A DNA stretch of 64,000 nt from Armatimonadota bacterium (GTDB lineage Bacteria; Armatimonadota; Zipacnadia; Zipacnadales; VGFC01), in contig VGFC01000002.1 in NCBI GenBank assembly GCA_016869045.1, positions 2,777-66,776 on the forward strand, in the 5' to 3' direction. The first letter of the stretch is position 1; each line of letters starts with the position of its first letter. Positions 15,114 through 57,809 of this stretch are shown here, in pieces. A program made the position numbers and the translations under genes. The notes below the pieces were generated by a model. It saw only the letters and a program-made list of their open reading frames with translations, ran no database searches and was not told the DNA's origin.

Positions 15114-15138
15114 GGAGGACAGGCATTCCTGCCTGTCC
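15114..15138 (+). repeat. GGAG-type REP palindrome (family B)
   Basis: GGA-GGACAGGCA TTCC TGCCTGTCC. Other copies at 17357-17381, 18715-18963 (split) and 56400-56424 (reverse). Confidence 0.85.
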
Positions 15139-15212
15139 AAGACTCGGTCTGTGGAACAGAAAACGCGCATTTTGCAGGACGTTTCGGGGCCGACGGCTCG
15201 TACCGCGTGAGT

Positions 15213-15297: not shown

Positions 15298-17340
15298 ATG
15301 CGCTCATTCTCACCAAGGTCGAACGCTCGCCACGTGTCGCTCCTGGGGGCCTGCGTGCTGCTGGCCGCGACGGTGCTACCCGCCGCGCTCTGGGCACAGG
15401 GCGGCGATGTGACGACCGTCGCCGTCGTGCGGTTCACCGACATGACTGCGCGGAGGAGCTCGCTGCTGGAAGCGAAGGCGACCGATGCCGTCGCTTTGGC
15501 CCTGAGCGACTCCAAGGAGTACCTGGTCACGCCGGCGCGGGAAGTGGACCGCGAGGTGCAGGCCCTCGCGCTCAACCTCCCCCTGTCCATGACCGAGGCC
15601 GTGCGGTTGGGGAAACGCCTCGATGTGGACTGTGTTTGCCTCGGCCAGGTCCTGGTGGCAGCCGTCAACACCACCACCGGCAAGGGTGAGGTGCGCCTTC
15701 AGATCATGATGGTTGACGTGGAGGCGGCCGAGCTCCTCGACGGTTCCACGGTGACCACGCAGACGAAGCCCATCCCCGGCTGGTCGGGAACGGAAGCCGA
15801 CATCCTCAACGAGGCCCTACGTCAGAGCGCGGAAGAGGGCGTGGCCCGCATGCTCGCGACGCGCGTACGGCGAGGCTCCGTTGATGCCGTGCTCCCCACC
15901 GGAACGTGTGCGATCAACCTCGGCTCCGAGGACGGGGCAGCCTCCGGCATGAAGCTGGTTGTGATGCGCCCTGTCTACCTCAAGGAGCTAGAGACCGTTA
16001 CCCTCCGCAAGATCGGCTACCTCGAAGTCAGTCGCATGCACCCGGACATGTGCTATGCCGACCCGGTGCGGAACGTTGCGCCCCGCACCGGCGACTACGT
16101 CGTCCGCGTCTACGAGCCCCAGGCCGTGGTTATCAAGGAGGCGGCCAAGCAGGACCGTACGAAGTTCGTCTGGGGCCTCGCGTCACTGGCGCTCCTGGGC
16201 GCCCTGGCCGGGATTGCCACCGGCGGGAACGAAGGCACCAAGCCCCCGACGCCGATCTCGTACCTCTACCAGGACACTCCCGGCGTGAGGCCGACCATCC
16301 GGGTGGAGTTCCTCCACGGCCTGGACAAGGCCTTCGGGCACCTGTTGTTCCGTGGCCCGATCCGCTACTTCCCGGCCGACCCCTACTACCTGGTTGAGGT
16401 CTCCACCCGCGGCATGGGTGAGGAGAGGATCCGGGCGACGGAGGACCTCCCGGACTGGCGCGATCAGAGGGACGTCACGATCACCGTCACCTTCCGTGAT
16501 GAGAGCGGCGACTACACGACCGAGACCGTGGACATCACCTACATGCACCCACAGCTGGACCCGGGCAGCACCTACTACCACCGTATCCAGCGCGTGACCA
16601 AGCCGCAGTTCCCGCCCGGCACGAACCCGCCGATTGGTAGCACGGGCGGCACGGAGCAGGTGGCACAAGCGGCCGGCCCCGATGAGAACGTCATCGACCA
16701 GAGCGGCGACTTCCCGATGCTGAGTCAGGCCTCGGACCCGGCGGGTCCCGTCACCTACATCGAGGCACCGACACTCTCGACGACGGTGCCGCAGCCGGGG
16801 GTGCCTCAAAACACAGCGTCCATCGACTTCGAGTGGAGCACGGTGGTGGGCGCCGACGACTACATGCTCGAAGTCTACGACGCCAACGGGACTGTTCTGC
16901 TCCGACGCACGGGCATCCGGCCGACCCCGCCGACCATCCGCGAGAACTGGCGGCCCGCCGCCGGTGACCTGGCCGGGCAGAGCACGTACTACTGGCACGT
17001 CGGCGCGAGGAAGAAGACGGAGGTCGGTGCGCGTGGTCAAGGCATCCCACAGTGCGGCGCTGGATCGAACCTCCAGGTGGGCTACGTCCTCTCCTCTGAA
17101 CAGTCCTTCGTCACGGCGCCCATCCCGCCCGGACCGGTCGGCACGACGACGCCCGTGGCCGGCCCGGGCAAGATCGCGGCAAAGCCGGGCAAGCAGGCCA
17201 ACGCCACGGCCGGCGACACCAAACCCGCAAAGGGCGGCGGCAAGCCGGGCAGGACCGGGGGCAACGCACCGCCGCGGCCGGCCCGTCCGCCCAGGACGCC
17301 CGTCTGGCAGCCGGCCCCCACCGTGGGGCCCGGGCGGTGA
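15298..17340 (+). CDS. Exported protein (680 aa): CsgG/TolB-N/FlgT-like N-terminal domains, internal TM helix, Ig/FN3-like domains, Pro/Lys-rich tail
   Basis: SD GGAGGGAGAGG before ATG 15298. Signal peptide ending ALWA. TTVAVVRFTD...AVRLGKRLDVDCVCLGQV. FlgT-C-like RRGSVDAV...INLGSEDGAASGMKLVV. Hydrophobic WGLASLALLGALAGIATGG. Confidence 0.6.
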   Translation: MRSFSPRSNARHVSLLGACVLLAATVLPAALWAQGGDVTTVAVVRFTDMTARRSSLLEAKATDAVALALSDSKEYLVTPAREVDREVQALALNLPLSMTEAVRLGKRLDVDCVCLGQVLVAAVNTTTGKGEVRLQIMMVDVEAAELLDGSTVTTQTKPIPGWSGTEADILNEALRQSAEEGVARMLATRVRRGSVDAVLPTGTCAINLGSEDGAASGMKLVVMRPVYLKELETVTLRKIGYLEVSRMHPDMCYADPVRNVAPRTGDYVVRVYEPQAVVIKEAAKQDRTKFVWGLASLALLGALAGIATGGNEGTKPPTPISYLYQDTPGVRPTIRVEFLHGLDKAFGHLLFRGPIRYFPADPYYLVEVSTRGMGEERIRATEDLPDWRDQRDVTITVTFRDESGDYTTETVDITYMHPQLDPGSTYYHRIQRVTKPQFPPGTNPPIGSTGGTEQVAQAAGPDENVIDQSGDFPMLSQASDPAGPVTYIEAPTLSTTVPQPGVPQNTASIDFEWSTVVGADDYMLEVYDANGTVLLRRTGIRPTPPTIRENWRPAAGDLAGQSTYYWHVGARKKTEVGARGQGIPQCGAGSNLQVGYVLSSEQSFVTAPIPPGPVGTTTPVAGPGKIAAKPGKQANATAGDTKPAKGGGKPGRTGGNAPPRPARPPRTPVWQPAPTVGPGR

Positions 17341-17356
17341 GAGTACGTACGAACTT

Positions 17357-17381
17357 GGAGGACAGGCCTTCCTGCCTGTCC
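17357..17381 (+). repeat. Family B REP copy
   Basis: GGAGGACAGGCCTTCCTGCCTGTCC, one mismatch to the 15114 copy. Confidence 0.85.
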
Positions 17382-17414
17382 CCCCAGCCGTGGGGCGGTC
17401 GTGAGTTCGGGGCG

Positions 17415-18710
17415 GTGAGAACGAAAACACGGAGTAGATGGTGGGTCGCGTCGGCCGGGGCGCTATTGGTGACTCTCGGCCCTGCCGGGTGGAGCGCTTC
17501 GATCGCCAAGTGGACCGTCCTGGGGTACTTGAGCGGCGACGGCAGTCTCGAACCGGTTGCGCTTGAGTACCTGCAGCGACTGGCCTCAGCGCCGGGAACG
17601 GGAAGCGTGGCGATTGGGGCGCAGATCGACCGGTCGCCCGGCTTTAGCAGCGAACTGGGCGACTTCACCGACACGCGGCGGGTGGTCTTCGAGGGCAGCG
17701 ACCCTCGCACGGCCCGCAAGTGGCGGTGGAGTGACTGGCGCACCGAAGCCGACATGGGCGACCCGCAGACGCTGGCCGACTTCCTGGCCTGGGGAGCCCG
17801 GACGTTGCCGGCGGAGCACTATGCAGTGCTCCTGGTGGGCCATGGGAGTGGTGTGCGGCCTCTCCTGCGTGAGAGCGACGAGCGGGATCACGGGGTGGCC
17901 TACGACGCTACAAACAACGGTGACAGCCTGACAACCGAGGAGATCGCGACTGCCGGCCGGACCTTCACTGACCTGCTCGGCGGCCGGAAGATCGCGTTAC
18001 TCGCGGTAGATGCCTGCTTCTCGGGCTCGGCTGAGGTGGCGCACGAGGCGGCGTCTGTTGCGGAGTGCATGACCGGCAGCCCGGACCTGCTCTACGAGCC
18101 CGGGGTGCCGTGGGATCAGGTGTTGCGGAAGCTCTGCGCGTCGCCGGACATGTCCGCCGAGTCGATGGCGACGCTCGCGGTGGAGGCGGTAGAGGCGTCC
18201 CAGGAAGCATCGGGCGCCCCGCGAGGGTCGTATGCTGCGGCCCGTTTGAGCGAGACACCGAAGTTGCAGGCCGCGGTGTCGGCCCTTACTGAGACGTTGT
18301 GTCGTTCGATGCGCGATGCGGCCCCGGCCGTCACCACGGCGCGCGCCGAGGCGACCCGGGGCGGCCTGTCGGGAGAGCAAGTAGACCTGGCGACCTTCCT
18401 GGTGGCCCTGGCGGACGAGGCGCAGGCGGAGGGTCTTACGGAGACAGCAGGGGCGGCGTCGGAGGCGCGGCGGGCGCTTGACGCGGTCGCCATCGCCTCC
18501 TACAGCGGGGAACGGGACCCGCGGGGCGGGCCGGCGTGGAAGTGGTCGGCATTCTTCCCGCCCAATCTGACGGCCTTCCCGCCCGACTATCTCGGCAAGT
18601 CCGTCTTTGCGCGACAGTCGGGGTGGGGGGCCTTTCTGGAGGCGTACCTGGGGCATCTGCAAAGGCTCATGTCGCCGCTAACGACGGATGAGACCGGAAA
18701 CCGAACCTAA
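17415..18710 (+). CDS. Secreted clostripain-family (C11, clan CD) cysteine peptidase (431 aa)
   Basis: KWTVLGYLSGDGSLE, DMGDPQTLADFLAWG...PAEHYAVLLVGHGSG (catalytic His), LAVDACF (catalytic Cys). Start placed after the REP. Confidence 0.85.
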   Translation: MRTKTRSRWWVASAGALLVTLGPAGWSASIAKWTVLGYLSGDGSLEPVALEYLQRLASAPGTGSVAIGAQIDRSPGFSSELGDFTDTRRVVFEGSDPRTARKWRWSDWRTEADMGDPQTLADFLAWGARTLPAEHYAVLLVGHGSGVRPLLRESDERDHGVAYDATNNGDSLTTEEIATAGRTFTDLLGGRKIALLAVDACFSGSAEVAHEAASVAECMTGSPDLLYEPGVPWDQVLRKLCASPDMSAESMATLAVEAVEASQEASGAPRGSYAAARLSETPKLQAAVSALTETLCRSMRDAAPAVTTARAEATRGGLSGEQVDLATFLVALADEAQAEGLTETAGAASEARRALDAVAIASYSGERDPRGGPAWKWSAFFPPNLTAFPPDYLGKSVFARQSGWGAFLEAYLGHLQRLMSPLTTDETGNRT

Positions 18711-18729
18711 GCTCGGAGGACAGGCATTC

Positions 18730-18948
18730 TTGTGGTTTGCCAAACCAGCGTAACGCTTGCTCATCATTGAGGCCCGCTCCAGACGTGGAGCATCCCTAGA
18801 CGCGATGGGTGCGTGAGATGCCCGTTGACATCATCAACGGCACCAAAGGCGCTCATTTAGGATGTAGTGGGTGGTTTGGGGCAGCGGAGGCTGTTCCTCT
18901 GTCACATTCCCACCCATCGTAACGAGCGTTACGCATGCTGGCAATCAA
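18730..18948. mobile_element. 219-bp MITE-like insertion inside a family B REP, with 5-bp target duplication
   Basis: GGACAGG-CATTC (18725-29)-[TTG...CAA]-CATTC (18949-53)-CTGCCTGTCC. Imperfect terminal IRs: TTGTGGTTTGCCAAACCAGCGTAACGCT versus the reverse complement of the right end, TTGATTGCCAGCATGCGTAACGCT. Confidence 0.7.
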
Positions 18949-19038
18949 CATTCCTGCCTGTCCAAGCATGGCTCCTACAACCAATCCCTTCCCGCCCCGG
19001 CGGGACGAGATCGGCGGATACCGGGAGGAGGAACCGGC

Positions 19039-22000
19039 GTGACGCTCTTCCTGCACACCGGAGCAGTACGGACCAGAGCGAGAAGAAGCCTGTGCGCCGT
19101 CTGGGTACTGGCGGCCCTCATCTGCACCGCATGGCCGCTGTGGGCCGCCAACCTGGCTGATCTGGCGGGACCCCTGCGTCAGATCGCAGCGATGGACCGC
19201 GCCGGCGCTCTCAGCCCGTTCGACCCTCTGGCCCGCGAACTTGGGGTCAGGAATGGCCGTGTCCTGGTCGAGGTGCGTTTCACACAGCCGGCCACAGGCC
19301 AGGTCGGCGCCCTCACCCGGTTCGGCGCGCGCGTCCACCGCTCCAGTGGCAGCCGGGCCCAGGCGATCGTGCCGCTCGCCAAACTGGCCGACCTCGCCTG
19401 CCTGCCCACGGTCGCCCAGGTGAACCTCCCCGAACGCCCCGTGCCCCTGCAGATTGGCCCCACCGTCAGCGAAGGCGTCCAGCTCACCAACGCCCTTTCG
19501 CTGCAGTGGGCCGGCCTCAGAGGCATGGGGGTCTCGGTCGCCATCATCGACCAGGGCTTCGAGGGCTACGACGGTGCTGAGCTGCCTACGACCGTCGTCA
19601 CGCGCTCCTTCCGCGCCGACGGAATCATCGACGGAATCACCGAACATGGCACCGCCTGCGCCGAGGTTGCCGGCGACATGGCCCCCGACGTGGACATGTA
19701 CCTCCTGGCCGTTGACACCGACATGGACGCCGAGACCGCCCTGGAGTGGTGCGTCCAGAACGGCATCGACGTTGTTAGCATGTCCCTCGGCTGGCTGTAC
19801 GGGCCGTTCGACGGAACCCACACGTTGGACGATGCCGTAGATCGGGCCCGCCAGGCGAGCATCCTCCCCGCCATCGCCGCCGGTGACTTCGCCAAACGAC
19901 ACTGGGCCGGCGACTATGCCGATGCCAACGCCAACAGCCTCCTGGAGTTCGATACCCAGGACGAGGGCATCAGCATCGTCACCACCGCCGCCGGGGAGCC
20001 CGTGCGGGTCTACCTGAGCTGGTTTCAGACGGCCAGCTCGCTGGGCACGAAGGCCGACGTGACCGATCGGGACTACGACCTTGAGTTGGTCGATCCGACG
20101 GGCGTAACGATCGCCACCTCCGCCGTCACCCAGAACGGGAACGATCCGCCCAGTGAAGTCCTCGTCGCCTTCGCCGGCGCACCGGGCACCTACGACGTCC
20201 GCGTCCGCGCCATGAGCCCCAACATCGCCACTGGGCCCACGGACCACTTCGAGCTGTTTTGCGAGACGCACGACCTCGATCCGGTGCTTCGGACTGCCGA
20301 GGGCAGTCTCTCGATTCCGGCCGCCGCCGCAGGGGCGCTCACCATCGGCGCCACGCGCACAGTTGCCGACCTCCCCGACCCAATCGTGGACTTCCCGTTG
20401 GACACCCTGGAGGACTTCAGCTCCCAGGGCCCCACGGTGGACGGACGCCTGAAGCCGGACCTGTCCGCGCCGGATGCCGTCCAGACCTCTCTGGACACGC
20501 AATCGGGAGCCTACAACACGTACAACCCCTTCTTCGGCACTTCCGCCGCTGCCCCCCACGTGGCCGGCGGCGCGGCCCTGCTGAAATGTGAGGACCCGAC
20601 GCGGACCGCCGACGAACTGGCCGACGTCCTGGTGCGCCTGGCGACCGCCCAGAACCTCATTACTCCGATCCGGCTTACCGACTCTTCGATTGCGGCCCCT
20701 GAGCAGGCCGGAGCCGGACGTCTGACGCTGCGGTCTGGGCTGGACACCAAACCACCTACGATCTCGATCACCTTCCCGATCAACGGAACCACCATTACGA
20801 CGGCGCAGCCCACCGTCGTGGGTGTCATCACCGACACGGAGACCGGCGTCGATCAGGGCACGATCGTGCTGACCGTCGATGGCACGCCCGTCCAATGGGA
20901 CTCCTTCAACCCGGGCTCCGGCGTTGTCTCCTACATGCCCCCGGATCCTCTCAGCCGCACGGCTCACACGGTCATGCTGGAAGCCAGCGATCTGGCCGGC
21001 AACGCCGGCACGCCCGCCGTCACCAACTTCCGCGTCGGGCTGCCGACCCTGAGCGCCGGCCTGCATCTCATCTCGCTGCCCTACCGCAATCTGCGGAACC
21101 CGAACCCGGCCGCCATCTTTGGGGTCGCTCTCAACGAGCTTGGCCTTGTCCGTTGGGTCCCGACGGATCCCTACTTCAGCAAGTACCGCATCTTCCCCGA
21201 TCCGCTGGCCGGCTTCCAACCGCCCGATTGTACCGGCGCCAACCCAACCGTTGTCTCCCCGCCCGCGGGACTCGGGTACTTCGTCAGGCTGCCGCGCGAG
21301 ATCGTACTGAACGTCGCCGGCGAGACGCTCGCCGACACCACCAGCTACACCATTCGGCTGCCTCTGGGTACGGCCGAACCTACGGGCTGGCACATGATCG
21401 GCAACCCGTACCAGGACGAGGTGGACTGGTCCACCGTGCAGTTTGTGACGAACGGTGTTCGCCAGAACCTCGACGACGCCATCGCCTCCGACGTCACCGA
21501 GGGCATCCTCTTCTGGTATGACGAGACGAGGAACGGCTACGACTTCGTCGAGCCGCAGAGGGCCGTGCTGGAACCCGGGGAAGGCTACTGGCTGCACGTG
21601 CAGGTCTCTACCGCCGTCATCATCTATCCCGCCACGGTGACGGCGGGCGTCACGGCGCGACCCAAGCCCTCGGCCCCAACACCGCGCCCGACGATAGACA
21701 ACTGGAAGGCGCAGATTGTGGCCGACGTACCCGGCATGTCGGACGCCTGCAACTACCTCGGCGTAGCGCCGAACGCCTCCAGCGGCCATGACGTCGCCGC
21801 CGATGTCCCCGAGCCGCCCGCCATCGGCGACTCGTCAGTGAGCCTCTACTTCCCGCACTCTGATTGGGGTTCAGCGAGCGGGGCCTACACGCAGGACCTC
21901 CGGGCCCGTGCCGCCTCCGCCCAGGAGTGGCGCTTCGACGTCGTCGGCCCGAAGGACGGGACCCCCGTGACGTTGTCGTGGCCCTCGCTCAACGCCACCG

Positions 22001-22434
22001 TCCCGGGTGAGTTGACCCTGCGCCTCGAGGATCTGGCGACTGGGCGCTCCGTCTACATGCGGGGCGTCACCTCCTATAGCTTCAAGGCGTCGGGCATCCG
22101 GCACTTCGCGGTAACCGCTGAGCGGGCGGGAACCGGCGGGTTGCAGATCACCGCGCTCTCCGCCGCCCAGGCGCGCGACGGCAGCGTCGTCGTGACCTAC
22201 GAGCTCTCGACCCCGGCCGCCGTCTCGGCCGAGGTCCGCAACATCGCGGGTCGGGTCGTGCGCGGTCTGATCGCAGGCCGCAATGCGGCCAAGGGGCTGC
22301 AGACCCTGACCTGGGACGCCCGCAGTGACGCAGGTGTCAAAGCACCGGCCGGCGCCTACCTGCTGGTGCTGACGGCCCGGACGGCCGACGGCCAGACGGT
22401 CAGCAGGCTCTGTCCGATCAATGCTACTCGATAG
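19039..22434 (+). CDS. Secreted subtilisin-like S8 serine peptidase with Ig-like domain and shared C-terminal FlgD-Ig module (1131 aa)
   Basis: Triad motifs VAIIDQGF (D), EHGTACAEV (H), FFGTSAAAPHVAGGAALL (S). SD GGAGGAGG before GTG 19039. C-terminus VRNIAGRVV...LTWD...KAPAGAYLL. Confidence 0.9.
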   Translation: MTLFLHTGAVRTRARRSLCAVWVLAALICTAWPLWAANLADLAGPLRQIAAMDRAGALSPFDPLARELGVRNGRVLVEVRFTQPATGQVGALTRFGARVHRSSGSRAQAIVPLAKLADLACLPTVAQVNLPERPVPLQIGPTVSEGVQLTNALSLQWAGLRGMGVSVAIIDQGFEGYDGAELPTTVVTRSFRADGIIDGITEHGTACAEVAGDMAPDVDMYLLAVDTDMDAETALEWCVQNGIDVVSMSLGWLYGPFDGTHTLDDAVDRARQASILPAIAAGDFAKRHWAGDYADANANSLLEFDTQDEGISIVTTAAGEPVRVYLSWFQTASSLGTKADVTDRDYDLELVDPTGVTIATSAVTQNGNDPPSEVLVAFAGAPGTYDVRVRAMSPNIATGPTDHFELFCETHDLDPVLRTAEGSLSIPAAAAGALTIGATRTVADLPDPIVDFPLDTLEDFSSQGPTVDGRLKPDLSAPDAVQTSLDTQSGAYNTYNPFFGTSAAAPHVAGGAALLKCEDPTRTADELADVLVRLATAQNLITPIRLTDSSIAAPEQAGAGRLTLRSGLDTKPPTISITFPINGTTITTAQPTVVGVITDTETGVDQGTIVLTVDGTPVQWDSFNPGSGVVSYMPPDPLSRTAHTVMLEASDLAGNAGTPAVTNFRVGLPTLSAGLHLISLPYRNLRNPNPAAIFGVALNELGLVRWVPTDPYFSKYRIFPDPLAGFQPPDCTGANPTVVSPPAGLGYFVRLPREIVLNVAGETLADTTSYTIRLPLGTAEPTGWHMIGNPYQDEVDWSTVQFVTNGVRQNLDDAIASDVTEGILFWYDETRNGYDFVEPQRAVLEPGEGYWLHVQVSTAVIIYPATVTAGVTARPKPSAPTPRPTIDNWKAQIVADVPGMSDACNYLGVAPNASSGHDVAADVPEPPAIGDSSVSLYFPHSDWGSASGAYTQDLRARAASAQEWRFDVVGPKDGTPVTLSWPSLNATVPGELTLRLEDLATGRSVYMRGVTSYSFKASGIRHFAVTAERAGTGGLQITALSAAQARDGSVVVTYELSTPAAVSAEVRNIAGRVVRGLIAGRNAAKGLQTLTWDARSDAGVKAPAGAYLLVLTARTADGQTVSRLCPINATR

Positions 22435-44772: not shown

Positions 44773-46605
44773 CTAACGCTCCAGTTCCGCCCAGGCCGCC
44801 CGTGGGTACCAGCACAGGATGCCGTAGGCCTCGGTGCCGACAAGGACTCCGGCGTGGCCGAAGAAGAGCGCGGCACGCGCGGAGTAGACGGGCGGCAAGA
44901 GATGGGAGCCTTCGCCCGGCGCCAGGAACAGCGTCGGGTAGACGTTGCGCGCGAGGGGCGTTGTGAAGAGATCGACCCCCTGAGCGCCGGTGACGACGAA
45001 CTCGGGGTTGCCGCCTGGAGTCCAGTCGGTGACCGAGAGAGCATTCGGTCGCAGCAGGCTGGCCTCTTGCAGGGCGGAGTCCCCGGTCGGGCCGCTGGTG
45101 TACAGCTCGATCTGGGCGGCCTTGGTGAACACGGGCGGGCCGTCCCGCCGGCCCTGGTTCTCCAGGTAGATGATCGGCTGGGCGGGGGTGAGCGGCTCGC
45201 CCGGAATCTCTCGTGCGCCGATGAAGAAGTCGGTGTCACCGTCGAGGTCATAGTCGCAGGTTGAGACCGTGGTGAGCCCGGTCGCCGCCAGCGGTCGCCC
45301 GCCAGCGGTGAGGCGCTGAGCGCCGAGGAGACCGGCCCGCGTGCGCGGGGCCAGGACGACCTCGCCGCTGCCGCCCCCAATTGCCAGCATGTCCACGGCA
45401 CTGTCGGTGTGAAGGGCGAGGGCCGGCTGGGCGTAGCCGCCGGGACACCGGTAGAGGCCCTCCGGGGATCGCACGAGCATCTCGGCTCCGAAGACCCCCT
45501 GCTTGGCGCGACCCTCGCCCAGATAGACTCTGAGCAGACCGTCCTCGCCCCCGACGAGAAGGTCCTCGCGCCCGTCGCCGTCCCAATCACCCAGGTCCGC
45601 CGCCGCGCAGCGACCGGCGTCGATGGGCGCGTCGGCCTGCTGCAGGTAAGGTCGCACGGCGAGCTGCGCCGCGTCCGTGCGCTCCAGCAAGACCACGCGG
45701 CCCGACCGCGTACCCAGCAGCAAGTCGGCGTCGCCGTCGCGGTCCCAGTCAACGCATCTGGGTGCCAGGTCCTGCAAGGGCGCGCCATCCGGACCGATGA
45801 TCCGCCCGTCTTCGCCGGACAGAGGCGCCGGAGCTTCGAAGGTTGGCGGGTCCGCACCGGCCTTCCCGAGCCGCGCAACGGCCCGGCCATCACCCGTGCC
45901 GACCACCAGATCGAGCACTCCGTCGCCATCGAGGTCGGCGATGTCTGCGCGCGGATGAGGCAGATCGCCGGCGGGCACGATCTCCTGGGGCGGGGCGAGG
46001 AGGGCGTCGCCCTTCCGCCGCGAGAGCAGCACGCGGCCGTCGGGGCACGAGATGTAGAGGTCGGGTCGGTCGCCCGGGCGAGGGCTGACGGCGGAGATGC
46101 CACAGTCCTCGGTGGGGAGCAGGGGCTGGGCTCCCTCGGCCAGCAACTCGACCCCGGGCGCGAAGCTCGCGTGGCCGTCGATCGTGCGGGTCTCGTAGAG
46201 GTAGACCTTCGTGCCGGCGGCGAGTAGCAGGTCCAGGTCGCCGTCGGCGTCCCAATCGCACGCGGCGGGACATGCCGGCGCGCGAACGGGGCTGAAGGCG
46301 AAGGGCTGTGTCTCCGCGCTGCCGAGGCCGGAGGGCTCCTCGAAGATGCCGTCGGGACGCTGGCGAAAGAAGAGCAGGTCCCCGTAACCCGAGCCGACCA
46401 TCAGGTCCATGCGGCCGTCGCCGTCCCAATCAACCGGCGAGAGCTGGACCCAGTCGCCGCCAGTCAGCGGCCCGACGGCCTGCCGGAAGACGATTCCCCG
46501 CAGCCACGCGAAGGGGCCCGTCTTCGTGATCTCAGTGAAGCGCTGAGCGTGGGACGGCTGAGCGAGGAGGACGACAAGCGCAAGGAGATTAGGGACAGGC
46601 CCCAA
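44773..46605 (-). CDS. Secreted FG-GAP/VCBS-repeat beta-propeller protein (about 610 aa)
   Basis: At least six D(W/L/Y)DxDGxxDL-type repeats. Signal-like LLALVVLLAQPSHA. Only nearby in-frame start is TTG 46605, inside a palindrome. Confidence 0.8.
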   Translation of the reverse strand: MGPVPNLLALVVLLAQPSHAQRFTEITKTGPFAWLRGIVFRQAVGPLTGGDWVQLSPVDWDGDGRMDLMVGSGYGDLLFFRQRPDGIFEEPSGLGSAETQPFAFSPVRAPACPAACDWDADGDLDLLLAAGTKVYLYETRTIDGHASFAPGVELLAEGAQPLLPTEDCGISAVSPRPGDRPDLYISCPDGRVLLSRRKGDALLAPPQEIVPAGDLPHPRADIADLDGDGVLDLVVGTGDGRAVARLGKAGADPPTFEAPAPLSGEDGRIIGPDGAPLQDLAPRCVDWDRDGDADLLLGTRSGRVVLLERTDAAQLAVRPYLQQADAPIDAGRCAAADLGDWDGDGREDLLVGGEDGLLRVYLGEGRAKQGVFGAEMLVRSPEGLYRCPGGYAQPALALHTDSAVDMLAIGGGSGEVVLAPRTRAGLLGAQRLTAGGRPLAATGLTTVSTCDYDLDGDTDFFIGAREIPGEPLTPAQPIIYLENQGRRDGPPVFTKAAQIELYTSGPTGDSALQEASLLRPNALSVTDWTPGGNPEFVVTGAQGVDLFTTPLARNVYPTLFLAPGEGSHLLPPVYSARAALFFGHAGVLVGTEAYGILCWYPRAAWAELER

Positions 46606-46645
46606 TTTCCGACATGACGTCCGTCGGAAATTGGGGCCTGTCCCT
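46591..46645. repeat. Perfect 23-bp inverted repeat (family D)
   Basis: AGGGACAGGCCCCAATTTCCGAC, 9 nt, GTCGGAAATTGGGGCCTGTCCCT. Confidence 0.92.
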
Positions 46646-46666
46646 GATTTCGCCCTTGACCTACGT

Positions 46667-56366: not shown

Positions 56367-57809
56367 TCATCCTCCGTTCGGAGTATCAGCCCCGAACTCG
56401 GACAGGCAGGAATGCCTGTCCTCCAAGTCTCGGGGCCGGCTTGTCTCCCCGCCGCCTACCGGCGCCTTGGCGAGCTCCTCGACCACGCTCACCAGCGCCA
56501 GCAGCAAGATCAGGGTAAGGCTCAACCCTCGCACGAGAACGCTGCTGAACAGCATGGCCAGAAACACGCCCAACATGCTCCCGGCGAGGCCCGCGCTCAA
56601 GGCGCGGAGGTACTCGGTCGGTCCCTTCGTGCTCTGAACGACTGCCGTGCGGTAGCCGGCATACAGCAACGCCGCCAGCGCGATCAGCCCGCACAGCCCC
56701 ATCGAGCCGGCGATCACCAGCCACCCGCAGTTCGTGTCCGGCTCGATCTTCTCGAAGTTGGGCAGCATCCCGTAGTTCTGCCCGATGTGCAACTGGTAGC
56801 CGCCCGTTCCTACCCCAAGGACGGGGTTCGCCCGCACCATGTTCAGCGCGGGCTGCCACTCGACCCACCTCTTCTTGACCTCCGTGGTCGTCGGAAGTTC
56901 CCCGCCCCGGAAGCTCTCGTCCGTGATTGCCGTCTCATCCCGCACGCCCTCCTCGTACCAGTCCATCAACTCGACCACGTCTGCCTCATGGTTCCGAGGA
57001 AGCGCCCACGGGCCCAGGGCAGTGAAGGCGACCACCGCCGCCGCGACGATCAGCGCCGTCCGCACGCTGCGGCGCAAGCTGAGGGCGATGAGGATCGCCG
57101 CGAGCGCCCAGAAGTGCCAGCCGGAGAGCATCGTCAGCATCCCCAAGGCCACCATCGTCAGCAGAGCGGGCCTCACCCATCCCGAGCCGCGCAGTCCGAG
57201 ACTGAACAGCACCGGCAGCACGAGCAGCAAGTAGTTGCAGTAGATGCTCCGGCTGCTCTTGCCCGCGAGGTGGAGCGTGTGGCCCAGCGGAGTCTTCGAG
57301 ATCACCTCGCCAAGGCCGAACGTCGAGCTGACCCGCCGGAAGGTCTCGCCCGGGTCGGCCGGGTCGGCCCAGAGGATGTACTGAGCCAGCGCGACCAGGA
57401 CCATCAGCGCGGTGAGGACCCCCAGCAGCCCCACGACCCACTTCACCCGCGTCTCATCGGTGATCGCGTTCAGGAACAGCAGGTAGGCGCAGACGAAGTA
57501 GAGGACATACTGCGCGACATCGACGATGCCCGACTTCAGGGCCTCCGGGGAGTCGGCGCGGCCGACCGCGACGATGGCCACCGCCACGAGAACGCCTGCC
57601 GCCAGGGGCGGCCACTTCACGCGCCGCCACGCACCCGTCCCCAGCGCCCACAAGGCCCACACGCCGAATAGCAGGGCGGCAAACACGTCGGCGCCCGAGA
57701 CGAACGGACCGTCCTTCAGGTCCTTCGCCAGCGCGGCCTGGGTTTGGGCCAGCACGATGAGGAGCAACACACCCCATAGTAGCCAGCCGGGGGACTTCGG
57801 CTGAGTCAT
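56367..57809 (-). CDS. O-antigen ligase / O-oligosaccharyltransferase-like (Wzy_C) membrane protein
   Basis: Multiple TM helices; RWVEWQPALNMVRANPVLGVGTGGY periplasmic motif. Confidence 0.82.
   Translation of the reverse strand: MTQPKSPGWLLWGVLLLIVLAQTQAALAKDLKDGPFVSGADVFAALLFGVWALWALGTGAWRRVKWPPLAAGVLVAVAIVAVGRADSPEALKSGIVDVAQYVLYFVCAYLLFLNAITDETRVKWVVGLLGVLTALMVLVALAQYILWADPADPGETFRRVSSTFGLGEVISKTPLGHTLHLAGKSSRSIYCNYLLLVLPVLFSLGLRGSGWVRPALLTMVALGMLTMLSGWHFWALAAILIALSLRRSVRTALIVAAAVVAFTALGPWALPRNHEADVVELMDWYEEGVRDETAITDESFRGGELPTTTEVKKRWVEWQPALNMVRANPVLGVGTGGYQLHIGQNYGMLPNFEKIEPDTNCGWLVIAGSMGLCGLIALAALLYAGYRTAVVQSTKGPTEYLRALSAGLAGSMLGVFLAMLFSSVLVRGLSLTLILLLALVSVVEELAKAPVGGGETSRPRDLEDRHSCLSEFGADTPNGG
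56400..56424 (-). repeat. Family B REP inside the 3' end of the O-antigen-ligase-like CDS
   Basis: Reverse complement of GGAGGACAGGCATTCCTGCCTGTCC; encodes EDRHSCLS. Confidence 0.85.

Follow-up and report, generated by a model that had tools for sequence, protein, structure and literature searches.

A 220-bp non-coding insert lies in the 4-nt loop of a REP palindrome, between the C11 and S8 protease genes of the window, the 64,000-nucleotide stretch of Armatimonadota DNA analyzed here. We read this insert as a REP-loop MITE, non-autonomous and moved in trans by a DDE transposase, most likely the one encoded by an insertion sequence (IS) on contig C13 of the same genome, and put the probability of this reading at roughly 0.85. 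The first-pass annotation of the window had already proposed a non-autonomous, REP-targeting element, and this proposal is now borne out by further copies, by empty sites and by an IS in the same genome that resembles the element in its ends and shares its target and duplication. The element displays each feature of a MITE that could be tested, namely a length below 500 bp (220 bp), terminal inverted repeats (TIRs), a 4-bp target site duplication (TSD), dispersed copies, IS-related ends, and both empty and occupied alleles.

The window is part of the source assembly (G000; 7.87 Mb in 723 contigs, 95% complete, 68.0% G+C), the contigs of which carry C numbers in what follows. L numbers denote metagenome contigs; those carrying the MITE were gathered by a pattern scan for both MITE ends.

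The window copy and the boundaries of the element

At the window locus, the order of parts is GGA-GGACAGGCA-TTCT, the insert TGTGGTTTGCCA...TGGCAATCAACA (18731-18950), and TTCC-TGCCTGTCC-AAG. The features of the locus and its surroundings are as follows.

15117..15138, + strand: intact REP of the same class with loop TTCC, the empty-site reference
17337..18710, + strand: clostripain-like C11 peptidase gene, upstream of the insert (PF03415, E = 7e-25)
17360..17381, + strand: intact REP variant GGACAGGCC-TTCC-TGCCTGTCC, between a 702-aa ORF and the C11 peptidase gene
18715..18726, + strand: left arm of the REP, GGA head plus 9-nt stem GGACAGGCA, assigned from the sequence; the head is conserved in other REPs
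18727..18730, + strand: left TSD copy TTCT, equal to the REP loop; these tetranucleotides track the loop in other copies
18731..18950, + strand: non-coding MITE of 220 bp that begins with TGT and ends with ACA, with 55.7% G+C and strong self-folding
18731..18757, + strand: left TIR TGTGGTTTGCCAAACCAGCGTAACGCT, 27 nt, matching the right TIR at 21/27 positions with one gap
18925..18950, - strand: right TIR, TGTTGATTGCCAGCATGCGTAACGCT in the minus-strand reading
18951..18954, + strand: right TSD copy TTCC; an independent Logan contig has the same right junction
18955..18963, + strand: right arm of the REP, TGCCTGTCC
19039..22434, + strand: S8 subtilase gene with FlgD_ig tail, downstream of the insert, start codon GTG at 19039
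56400..56421, + strand: intact REP of the same class with the opposite loop orientation (GGAA)

Removal of the insert together with one loop copy leaves GGAGGACAGGCATTCCTGCCTGTCCAAG, which is identical to the intact REP at 15114-15141 (28/28 positions), as had been noted before. The regenerated REP also matches the one at 56400, over a 25-nt core and in the opposite orientation. The first-pass annotation had placed the ends of the insert differently, describing 219 bp with TTG/CAA ends and a CATTC duplication. Comparison of all copies corrects this to 220 bp with TGT...ACA ends and to a duplication of the 4-nt REP loop. The base formerly read as the first of the element varies with the loop (C, A or T) and therefore belongs to the target. 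At the site GGACAGGCG-ACCT/element/ACCT-CGCCTGTC (L044, corresponding to C576+C604), the left stem ends in G, and the terminal CA must therefore be part of the element. The same site rules out both the 5-bp CATTC duplication and a 6-bp duplication of CA plus loop.

All junctions in REPs have the form stem-N4/TGT...ACA/N4-stem within the GGACAGGCA-N4-TGCCTGTCC palindrome, with the loop in either orientation. The TSD was 4 bp long at 17/17 two-sided resolved sites and perfect at 14 of these 17, and the perfect TSDs (TTCC, GGAA, TTCT, ACCT and AGAC) track the loop. The two TSD copies differ at one base in the window (TTCT/TTCC) and at C108:14255-14474, which is also represented by L017 (TTCC/TTCT). 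Those of the C13 IS are likewise unequal (GGAT/GGAA). The third mismatch of a MITE copy (L013, AGAA/GGAA) is unreliable, with a right flank of only 16 nt.

The TSD differences are confined to the outer loop positions, which is where REP loops vary. A simple staggered-cut model does not predict such one-base differences, and random mutation explains them poorly, as 4,400 bp of element sequence in total are without a substitution. Candidate explanations are gene conversion between copies, carry-over of the donor loop via a circle junction, and hypermutable loop positions. More speculatively, the unequal TSDs could be footprints of the loop that flanked the donor, which would travel in the junction of a copy-out circle, anneal to the 4-nt gap at the new REP and be ligated there. 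Inversion by homologous recombination between reciprocal hybrids (the window and C108 copies) is unlikely for the window copy, the flanking gene order of which is ancestral.

Several properties of the insert that had been described from the letters of the window were reproduced. The imperfect TIRs are real, the three internal palindromes are present (18776-18791, 18822-18840 and 18918-18933), and the insert is AT-rich (55.7% G+C versus 68.0% for the genome). It likewise has no ORF of its own longer than 37 aa, and no protein-coding similarity was found for it. No credible Rfam match was obtained in 18500-19200, and no similarity to the interior of the MITE was detected elsewhere in the genome, in the C13 IS or in seven related IS loci. 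The predicted minimum free energy of the insert is -98.2 kcal/mol (z = -5.4 versus shuffled controls), an excess of folding that is expected for a palindrome-rich sequence with terminal repeats.

The C11 stop codon ends 16 nt ahead of the REP stem, and the GTG start of S8 lies 84 nt past the right TSD copy. The recorded 1131-aa S8 product has exactly this start, which is conserved together with its ribosome-binding site in a same-genus relative. As the REP at 17360 falls inside the longest C11 ORF, the true C11 start is probably downstream of that REP, at 17415 or later. REPs of one class, at 15117, 17360 and 18718, occupy three successive spacers of the string formed by the 702-aa ORF, C11 and S8.

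Copies, empty sites and the REP target

A search for further copies, which the first-pass annotation had suggested, showed that the element is multicopy, with about 20 copies in the assembly and, for the population as a whole, about 27 sites. In the assembly, blastn found 7 complete copies, along with 13 fragments with a left end and 13 with a right end that stop at contig edges. These correspond to approximately 20 copies (20 left ends and 20 right ends), all of them 100% identical with 0 mismatches. The metagenome contig scan recovered the same element at 100% identity on 33 contigs from four related samples, through which both sides of additional sites could be read, and the assembly and the related metagenome contigs together represent approximately 27 sites. 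Short-read assembly of this organism is interrupted by the 220-bp repeat, to which 26 contig ends can be attributed.

Contig C113 carries an intact REP, GGACAGGCA-GGAA-TGCCTGTCC, the 120-nt left flank of which is 100% identical to the flank at the left end of the MITE in C512 and L033. Its right 120-nt flank is 100% identical to the flank at the right end of the MITE in L015. The empty and occupied forms of this locus differ by exactly 220+4 bp. Comparison of junction flanks with all contigs revealed further empty/occupied pairs (C287 with L025, C124 with L024, and C654 with L022). As loci of one population exist in both the empty and the occupied form, the element has moved recently, and these sequences indicate that it is currently, or was very recently, active in the natural population. 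Such allele pairs provide direct evidence of current or very recent activity in an uncultured bacterium.

The empty-site check suggested in the first-pass annotation was thus positive for several copies, and for the window locus itself no empty allele was found, including by exact-sequence look-up of the C11 protein. An independent Logan contig begins with the right end of the element joined to the same S8 flank. Furthermore, the C11-S8 gene order is conserved in same-genus and same-family relatives, with spacers of 100 to 145 nt that contain neither REP nor element. An assembly chimera at the window junction is ruled out by this conserved synteny and the independent Logan contig. As the spacers of the relatives have neither of the two, the REP and the element arrived at the window locus after the split from both relatives.

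Two other arrangements were observed among the copies. L037 contains the sole element junction outside a REP, ...CTGGCGCAGA/TGTGG, and an uninterrupted CTGGCGCAGACGCGTGAGCGC at approximately 922-946 of C105 in G000 is the empty form of this site. The L037 junction reflects rare insertion off target or, alternatively, a chimera at the end of the contig. At C224:1-2550, two copies of the element lie approximately 2.3 kb apart, with identical right flanks bordered by the inverted repeat CGCGTAAGTTGG...CCAACTTACGCG, which points to a local duplication or to some REPs being embedded in a larger composite repeat.

The targeted REP is a short, abundant, mostly extragenic imperfect palindrome. G000 has 70 to 100 intact copies of it and G001, a genome of the same genus, has 46; its occurrence in the order is patchy. 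It has an asymmetric head, G(G/T)A, which is conserved in 89 to 95% of 63 intact REPs. The element occurs in both orientations relative to this head. G000 is unusually REP-rich. A count of perfect palindromes with stems of 8 bp and loops of 4 nt gave more than 1,300 in the genome, which fall into at least 8 stem classes. The classes include GGGCGCGA (284 copies), GGCGGGCA (264), GGGCGCCA (205), GGGCGTGA (154) and GTCGGGAT (87). The GACAGGCA class comprises 72 perfect copies, or approximately 5% of the more than 1,300 hairpins.

It is this class that holds 26 of the approximately 27 element sites and both copies of the IS, while the larger classes GGGCGCGA, GGCGGGCA and GGGCGCCA are without insertions. 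The loops of occupied sites vary (TTCC, GGAA, TTCT, AGAA, ACCT, AGAC and CTCC). As the target class makes up approximately 5% of hairpins yet takes nearly all sites, while loops vary, targeting is sequence specific, with the stem being read and not the loop or the shape of the hairpin alone. The element offers a clear case of choice by sequence over shape, as one hairpin class is used among many of equal geometry in the same genome.

In this fragmented assembly, a search for a cognate RAYT found this REP within 2.5 kb of 0/11 PF01797 (Y1_Tnp) homologues. The window also contains, at 46586-46651, a member of another and longer family of palindromic repeats, GAGATTAGGGACAGGCCCCAATTTCCGAC...GTCGGAAATTGGGGCCTGTCCCTGATTTC, with approximately 22 copies of that form. 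This family also has shorter variants with a TTTTGGACGTCGAAAA centre, and its core GGGACAGGC is common to the targeted REP. In G001 (contigs C26, C142, C160, C312, C371 and C465), copies of the targeted REP are paired in inverted orientation at a spacing of exactly 46 bp, with a TTCC loop followed by a GGAA loop, which is a BIME- or REPIN-like arrangement.

Candidate mobilizer and proposed mode of insertion

The first-pass annotation had also suggested looking for a transposase-bearing parent. Seeking MITE-like ends directly after REP half-sites in the genome revealed an IS the ends of which are related to those of the MITE and which has the same target and TSD. This IS of 1,436 bp, with the ends TGTTGTTTGTCAAAGGCGCGTATCGG and TGTTGCTTGCCGCAGGCGCGTAACGG, lies at C13:6433-7868, in the loop of the same REP and with a 4-bp duplication, and a second copy is found at the edge of C319. 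The IS encodes a single intact ORF of 428 aa with HTH_28 and rve/rve_3 domains. The best NCBIfam match of this transposase is IS481 (E = 1.5e-37), with a score of 129.6 bits that lies below the curated cut-off of NF033577 (224). It scores 61.6 bits with the IS3 model NF033516, below the cut-off of 160. By these profile scores, the C13 transposase is distantly IS481-like and not a filed member of IS481.

D152, D219 and E263 are invariant among 28 homologues, which corresponds to an intact DDE triad, and 6/28 homologues match Mu-transpos_C models. Among annotated relatives on plasmids, the nearest (25 to 30% identity) are transposases of the IS481 family and proteins that carry a Mu-transposase C-terminal domain. 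A profile search of solved structures matched retroviral integrase cores to the C13 transposase.

The ends of the MITE and the IS share TGTnGnTTGyC and GCGTAACG, which are exactly the blocks conserved throughout the IS family. Their terminal repeats match at 17 to 19 of 26 positions (19/26 for the left ends), leaving 7 to 9 that differ. The site TTGCCA-N-CGTAACG is present once per MITE end and twice per IS end. As the interiors are unrelated, the MITE is not a simple deletion derivative of the C13 IS. Both the IS and the MITE are present in G000, and both are absent from 40 relatives. On this evidence from shared ends, target and genome, the C13 transposase is the likely mover of the MITE.

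In the mechanism that we propose, a DDE (rve-type) transposase acting in trans would bind the TGT...GCGTAACG terminal repeats of the MITE and recognize the stem duplex of the REP, GGACAGGCA-N4-TGCCTGTCC. Its cuts would fall at the two boundaries between stem and loop, with a stagger of 4 bp, and the 3' ends of the element would be joined to phosphates 4 bp apart. Gap repair would then duplicate the loop, leaving the element inside it with one loop copy on each side. Copy-out-paste-in transposition, as in the IS3 and IS481 families, is the probable pathway.

Relatives of the IS provide further context for its choice of target. Homologues of the IS with 54 to 85% identity are frequent in metagenomes, where most lie on contigs as long as the IS itself. 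The 4-bp duplication pairs on the short metagenome IS contigs L053, L054, L055, L056, L069 and L074 were excluded, as their flanks are mirrored or chimeric. Where flanks are readable, the relatives lie in the loops of short GC-rich palindromes, with the targets CGCAGGCA-N4-TGCCTGCG (L052) and GACAGGCA-N4-TGCCTGTC (L053, L055 and L057). A 67%-identical relative is inserted in GGGCGCCA-TTCA-TGGCGCCC, with the TSD TTCA/TTCA (L067, L073 and L081), and a 60%-identical relative in two other palindromes, with CCCG/CCCG and TAGG/TAGG (L077 and L078). Loop insertion with a 4-bp duplication thus appears to be a family trait, with the stem class differing between members.

These relatives could form an undescribed IS481-like clade, all members of which integrate at both stem-loop boundaries of palindromes with 4-nt loops, each reading a different REP stem. 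We offer this generalization tentatively and consider it possible, on balance doubtful. If it is true, the clade would constitute a natural series of sequence-specific DDE integrases with a mappable target code.

Neither the genome nor the metagenome contig scan yielded an IS with ends identical to those of the MITE, and the true mobilizer could therefore be unseen. A different transposase would then move, or have moved, the MITE, with a closer parent IS carrying identical ends being missing or lost and the C13 IS being a cousin that shares its target. We consider this explanation unlikely, albeit one with a real chance of being correct. The unrelated interior of the C13 IS and the limited match between the terminal repeats agree with it, as does the state of the assembly (723 contigs, 95% complete), given that the binning of genomes often loses IS contigs of approximately 1.5 kb. 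However, the metagenome scan for both MITE ends returned only source-sample MITE copies, and seven pattern matches from unrelated samples have no adjacent transposase and look like chance. In addition, the only copies of the family transposase that tblastn detected in the genome are those on C13 and at the end of C319, and the positions common to MITE and IS ends are those conserved family-wide.

The window copy would be neutral selfish DNA, and we infer little or no effect on the neighbouring genes; the altered S8 expression that the first-pass annotation had considered possible is not supported. The only promoter-like match is weak (9/12), is located on the strand opposite S8 and points away from that gene, and no terminator-like match was found. 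A domesticated role of the window copy with respect to S8, for example as structured leader, sRNA or promoter donor, might be suspected from its position within an apparent operon, 84 nt upstream of the S8 start codon, and from the very stable fold that an RNA of the element would adopt. This is very improbable, however, as identical copies are scattered over unrelated contexts in both orientations, Rfam gave no match, the only promoter-like match faces away from S8 and no terminator-like site was found, and relatives have the same gene pair with a spacer of 100 to 145 nt and no element.

The 11 Y1_Tnp homologues of the genome and the asymmetric G(G/T)A head, which resembles that of RAYT-type REPs, would fit a composite REP/BIME or REPIN-like unit of 220 bp plus REP arms spread by a RAYT, but this is scarcely credible and largely refuted by empty alleles that are intact REPs differing by exactly 220+4 bp, by stems (GGACGGGCA, CGACAGGCA, GGACAGGCG...CGCCTGTC) and loops (TTCC, TTCT, ACCT, AGAC) that vary between copies around an invariant 220 bp, by the TG..CA terminal repeats with a loop-tracking duplication, and by the absence of this REP within 2.5 kb of any of the 11 Y1 genes.

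Relation to known REP-targeting elements

REP-targeting IS were already known in the 1990s, and pairs of a MITE with an IS are common. Bachellier in 1997 and Wilde in 2003 reportedly described insertion of IS1397 and ISKpn1 into REP loops, with the specificity residing in the transposase. The element studied here is a further example of this known behavior of REP-targeting IS and MITEs, and the general picture is unchanged by it. What it adds is a REP-loop-specific element from an IS481-like lineage (HTH, rve and a Mu-C-like tail), outside the five families in which REP targeting is listed. These are IS3, IS110, IS4, IS256 and IS5; IS481 is not among them (PMC1525189).

The first-pass annotation had drawn a comparison with IS1397 and ISKpn1, which holds for REP-loop targeting and fails for the partner, a single-ORF IS481-like element and not a two-ORF member of the IS3 family. 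IS1397 of Escherichia coli and ISKpn1 of Klebsiella pneumoniae, both of the IS3 family, are the closest functional analogues of the REP-loop insertion described here. They share with it the DDE (rve) domain, TG..CA ends, insertion into the loop of one REP class and a duplication of 3 to 4 bp (PMC1525189). Target specificity of IS1397 and ISKpn1 resides in the transposase (PMC1525189). However, both have two ORFs with a programmed -1 frameshift and match the IS3 model, whereas the C13 IS has its single 428-aa ORF and fails that model. Furthermore, IS1397 and ISKpn1 are themselves IS, while the window element is a non-autonomous MITE.

Members of the IS481 family (IS481 and ISEc19/yagA) have in common with the C13 IS a single ORF with HTH and rve DDE domains, a length of approximately 1 to 1.5 kb and terminal repeats that begin with TGT. 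The C13 transposase differs from them in its low identity to annotated members (25 to 30%), in an extra C-terminal region of approximately 110 aa and in its score below the cut-off (129.6 versus 224).

The REP-targeting members of the IS110 family (IS621, ISPpu9, ISPpu10 and ISPa11) likewise insert strictly into REPs (PMC1525189, PMC12288879). They use a DEDD recombinase and are without TIRs or a loop-tracking duplication, in contrast to the 27-nt TIRs, the variable 4-bp TSD and the DDE partner found here. A mechanism of the IS110/bridge-RNA type is ruled out by these TIRs, the loop-tracking duplication and the DDE partner.

Among MITE-IS pairs, MITEAba12 and the ISM-type MITEs are likewise small, non-coding and multicopy, with TIRs, a TSD and ends related to those of a co-resident IS (PMC10969869). 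Unlike them, the window MITE is near-absolutely specific for the loop of one REP class.
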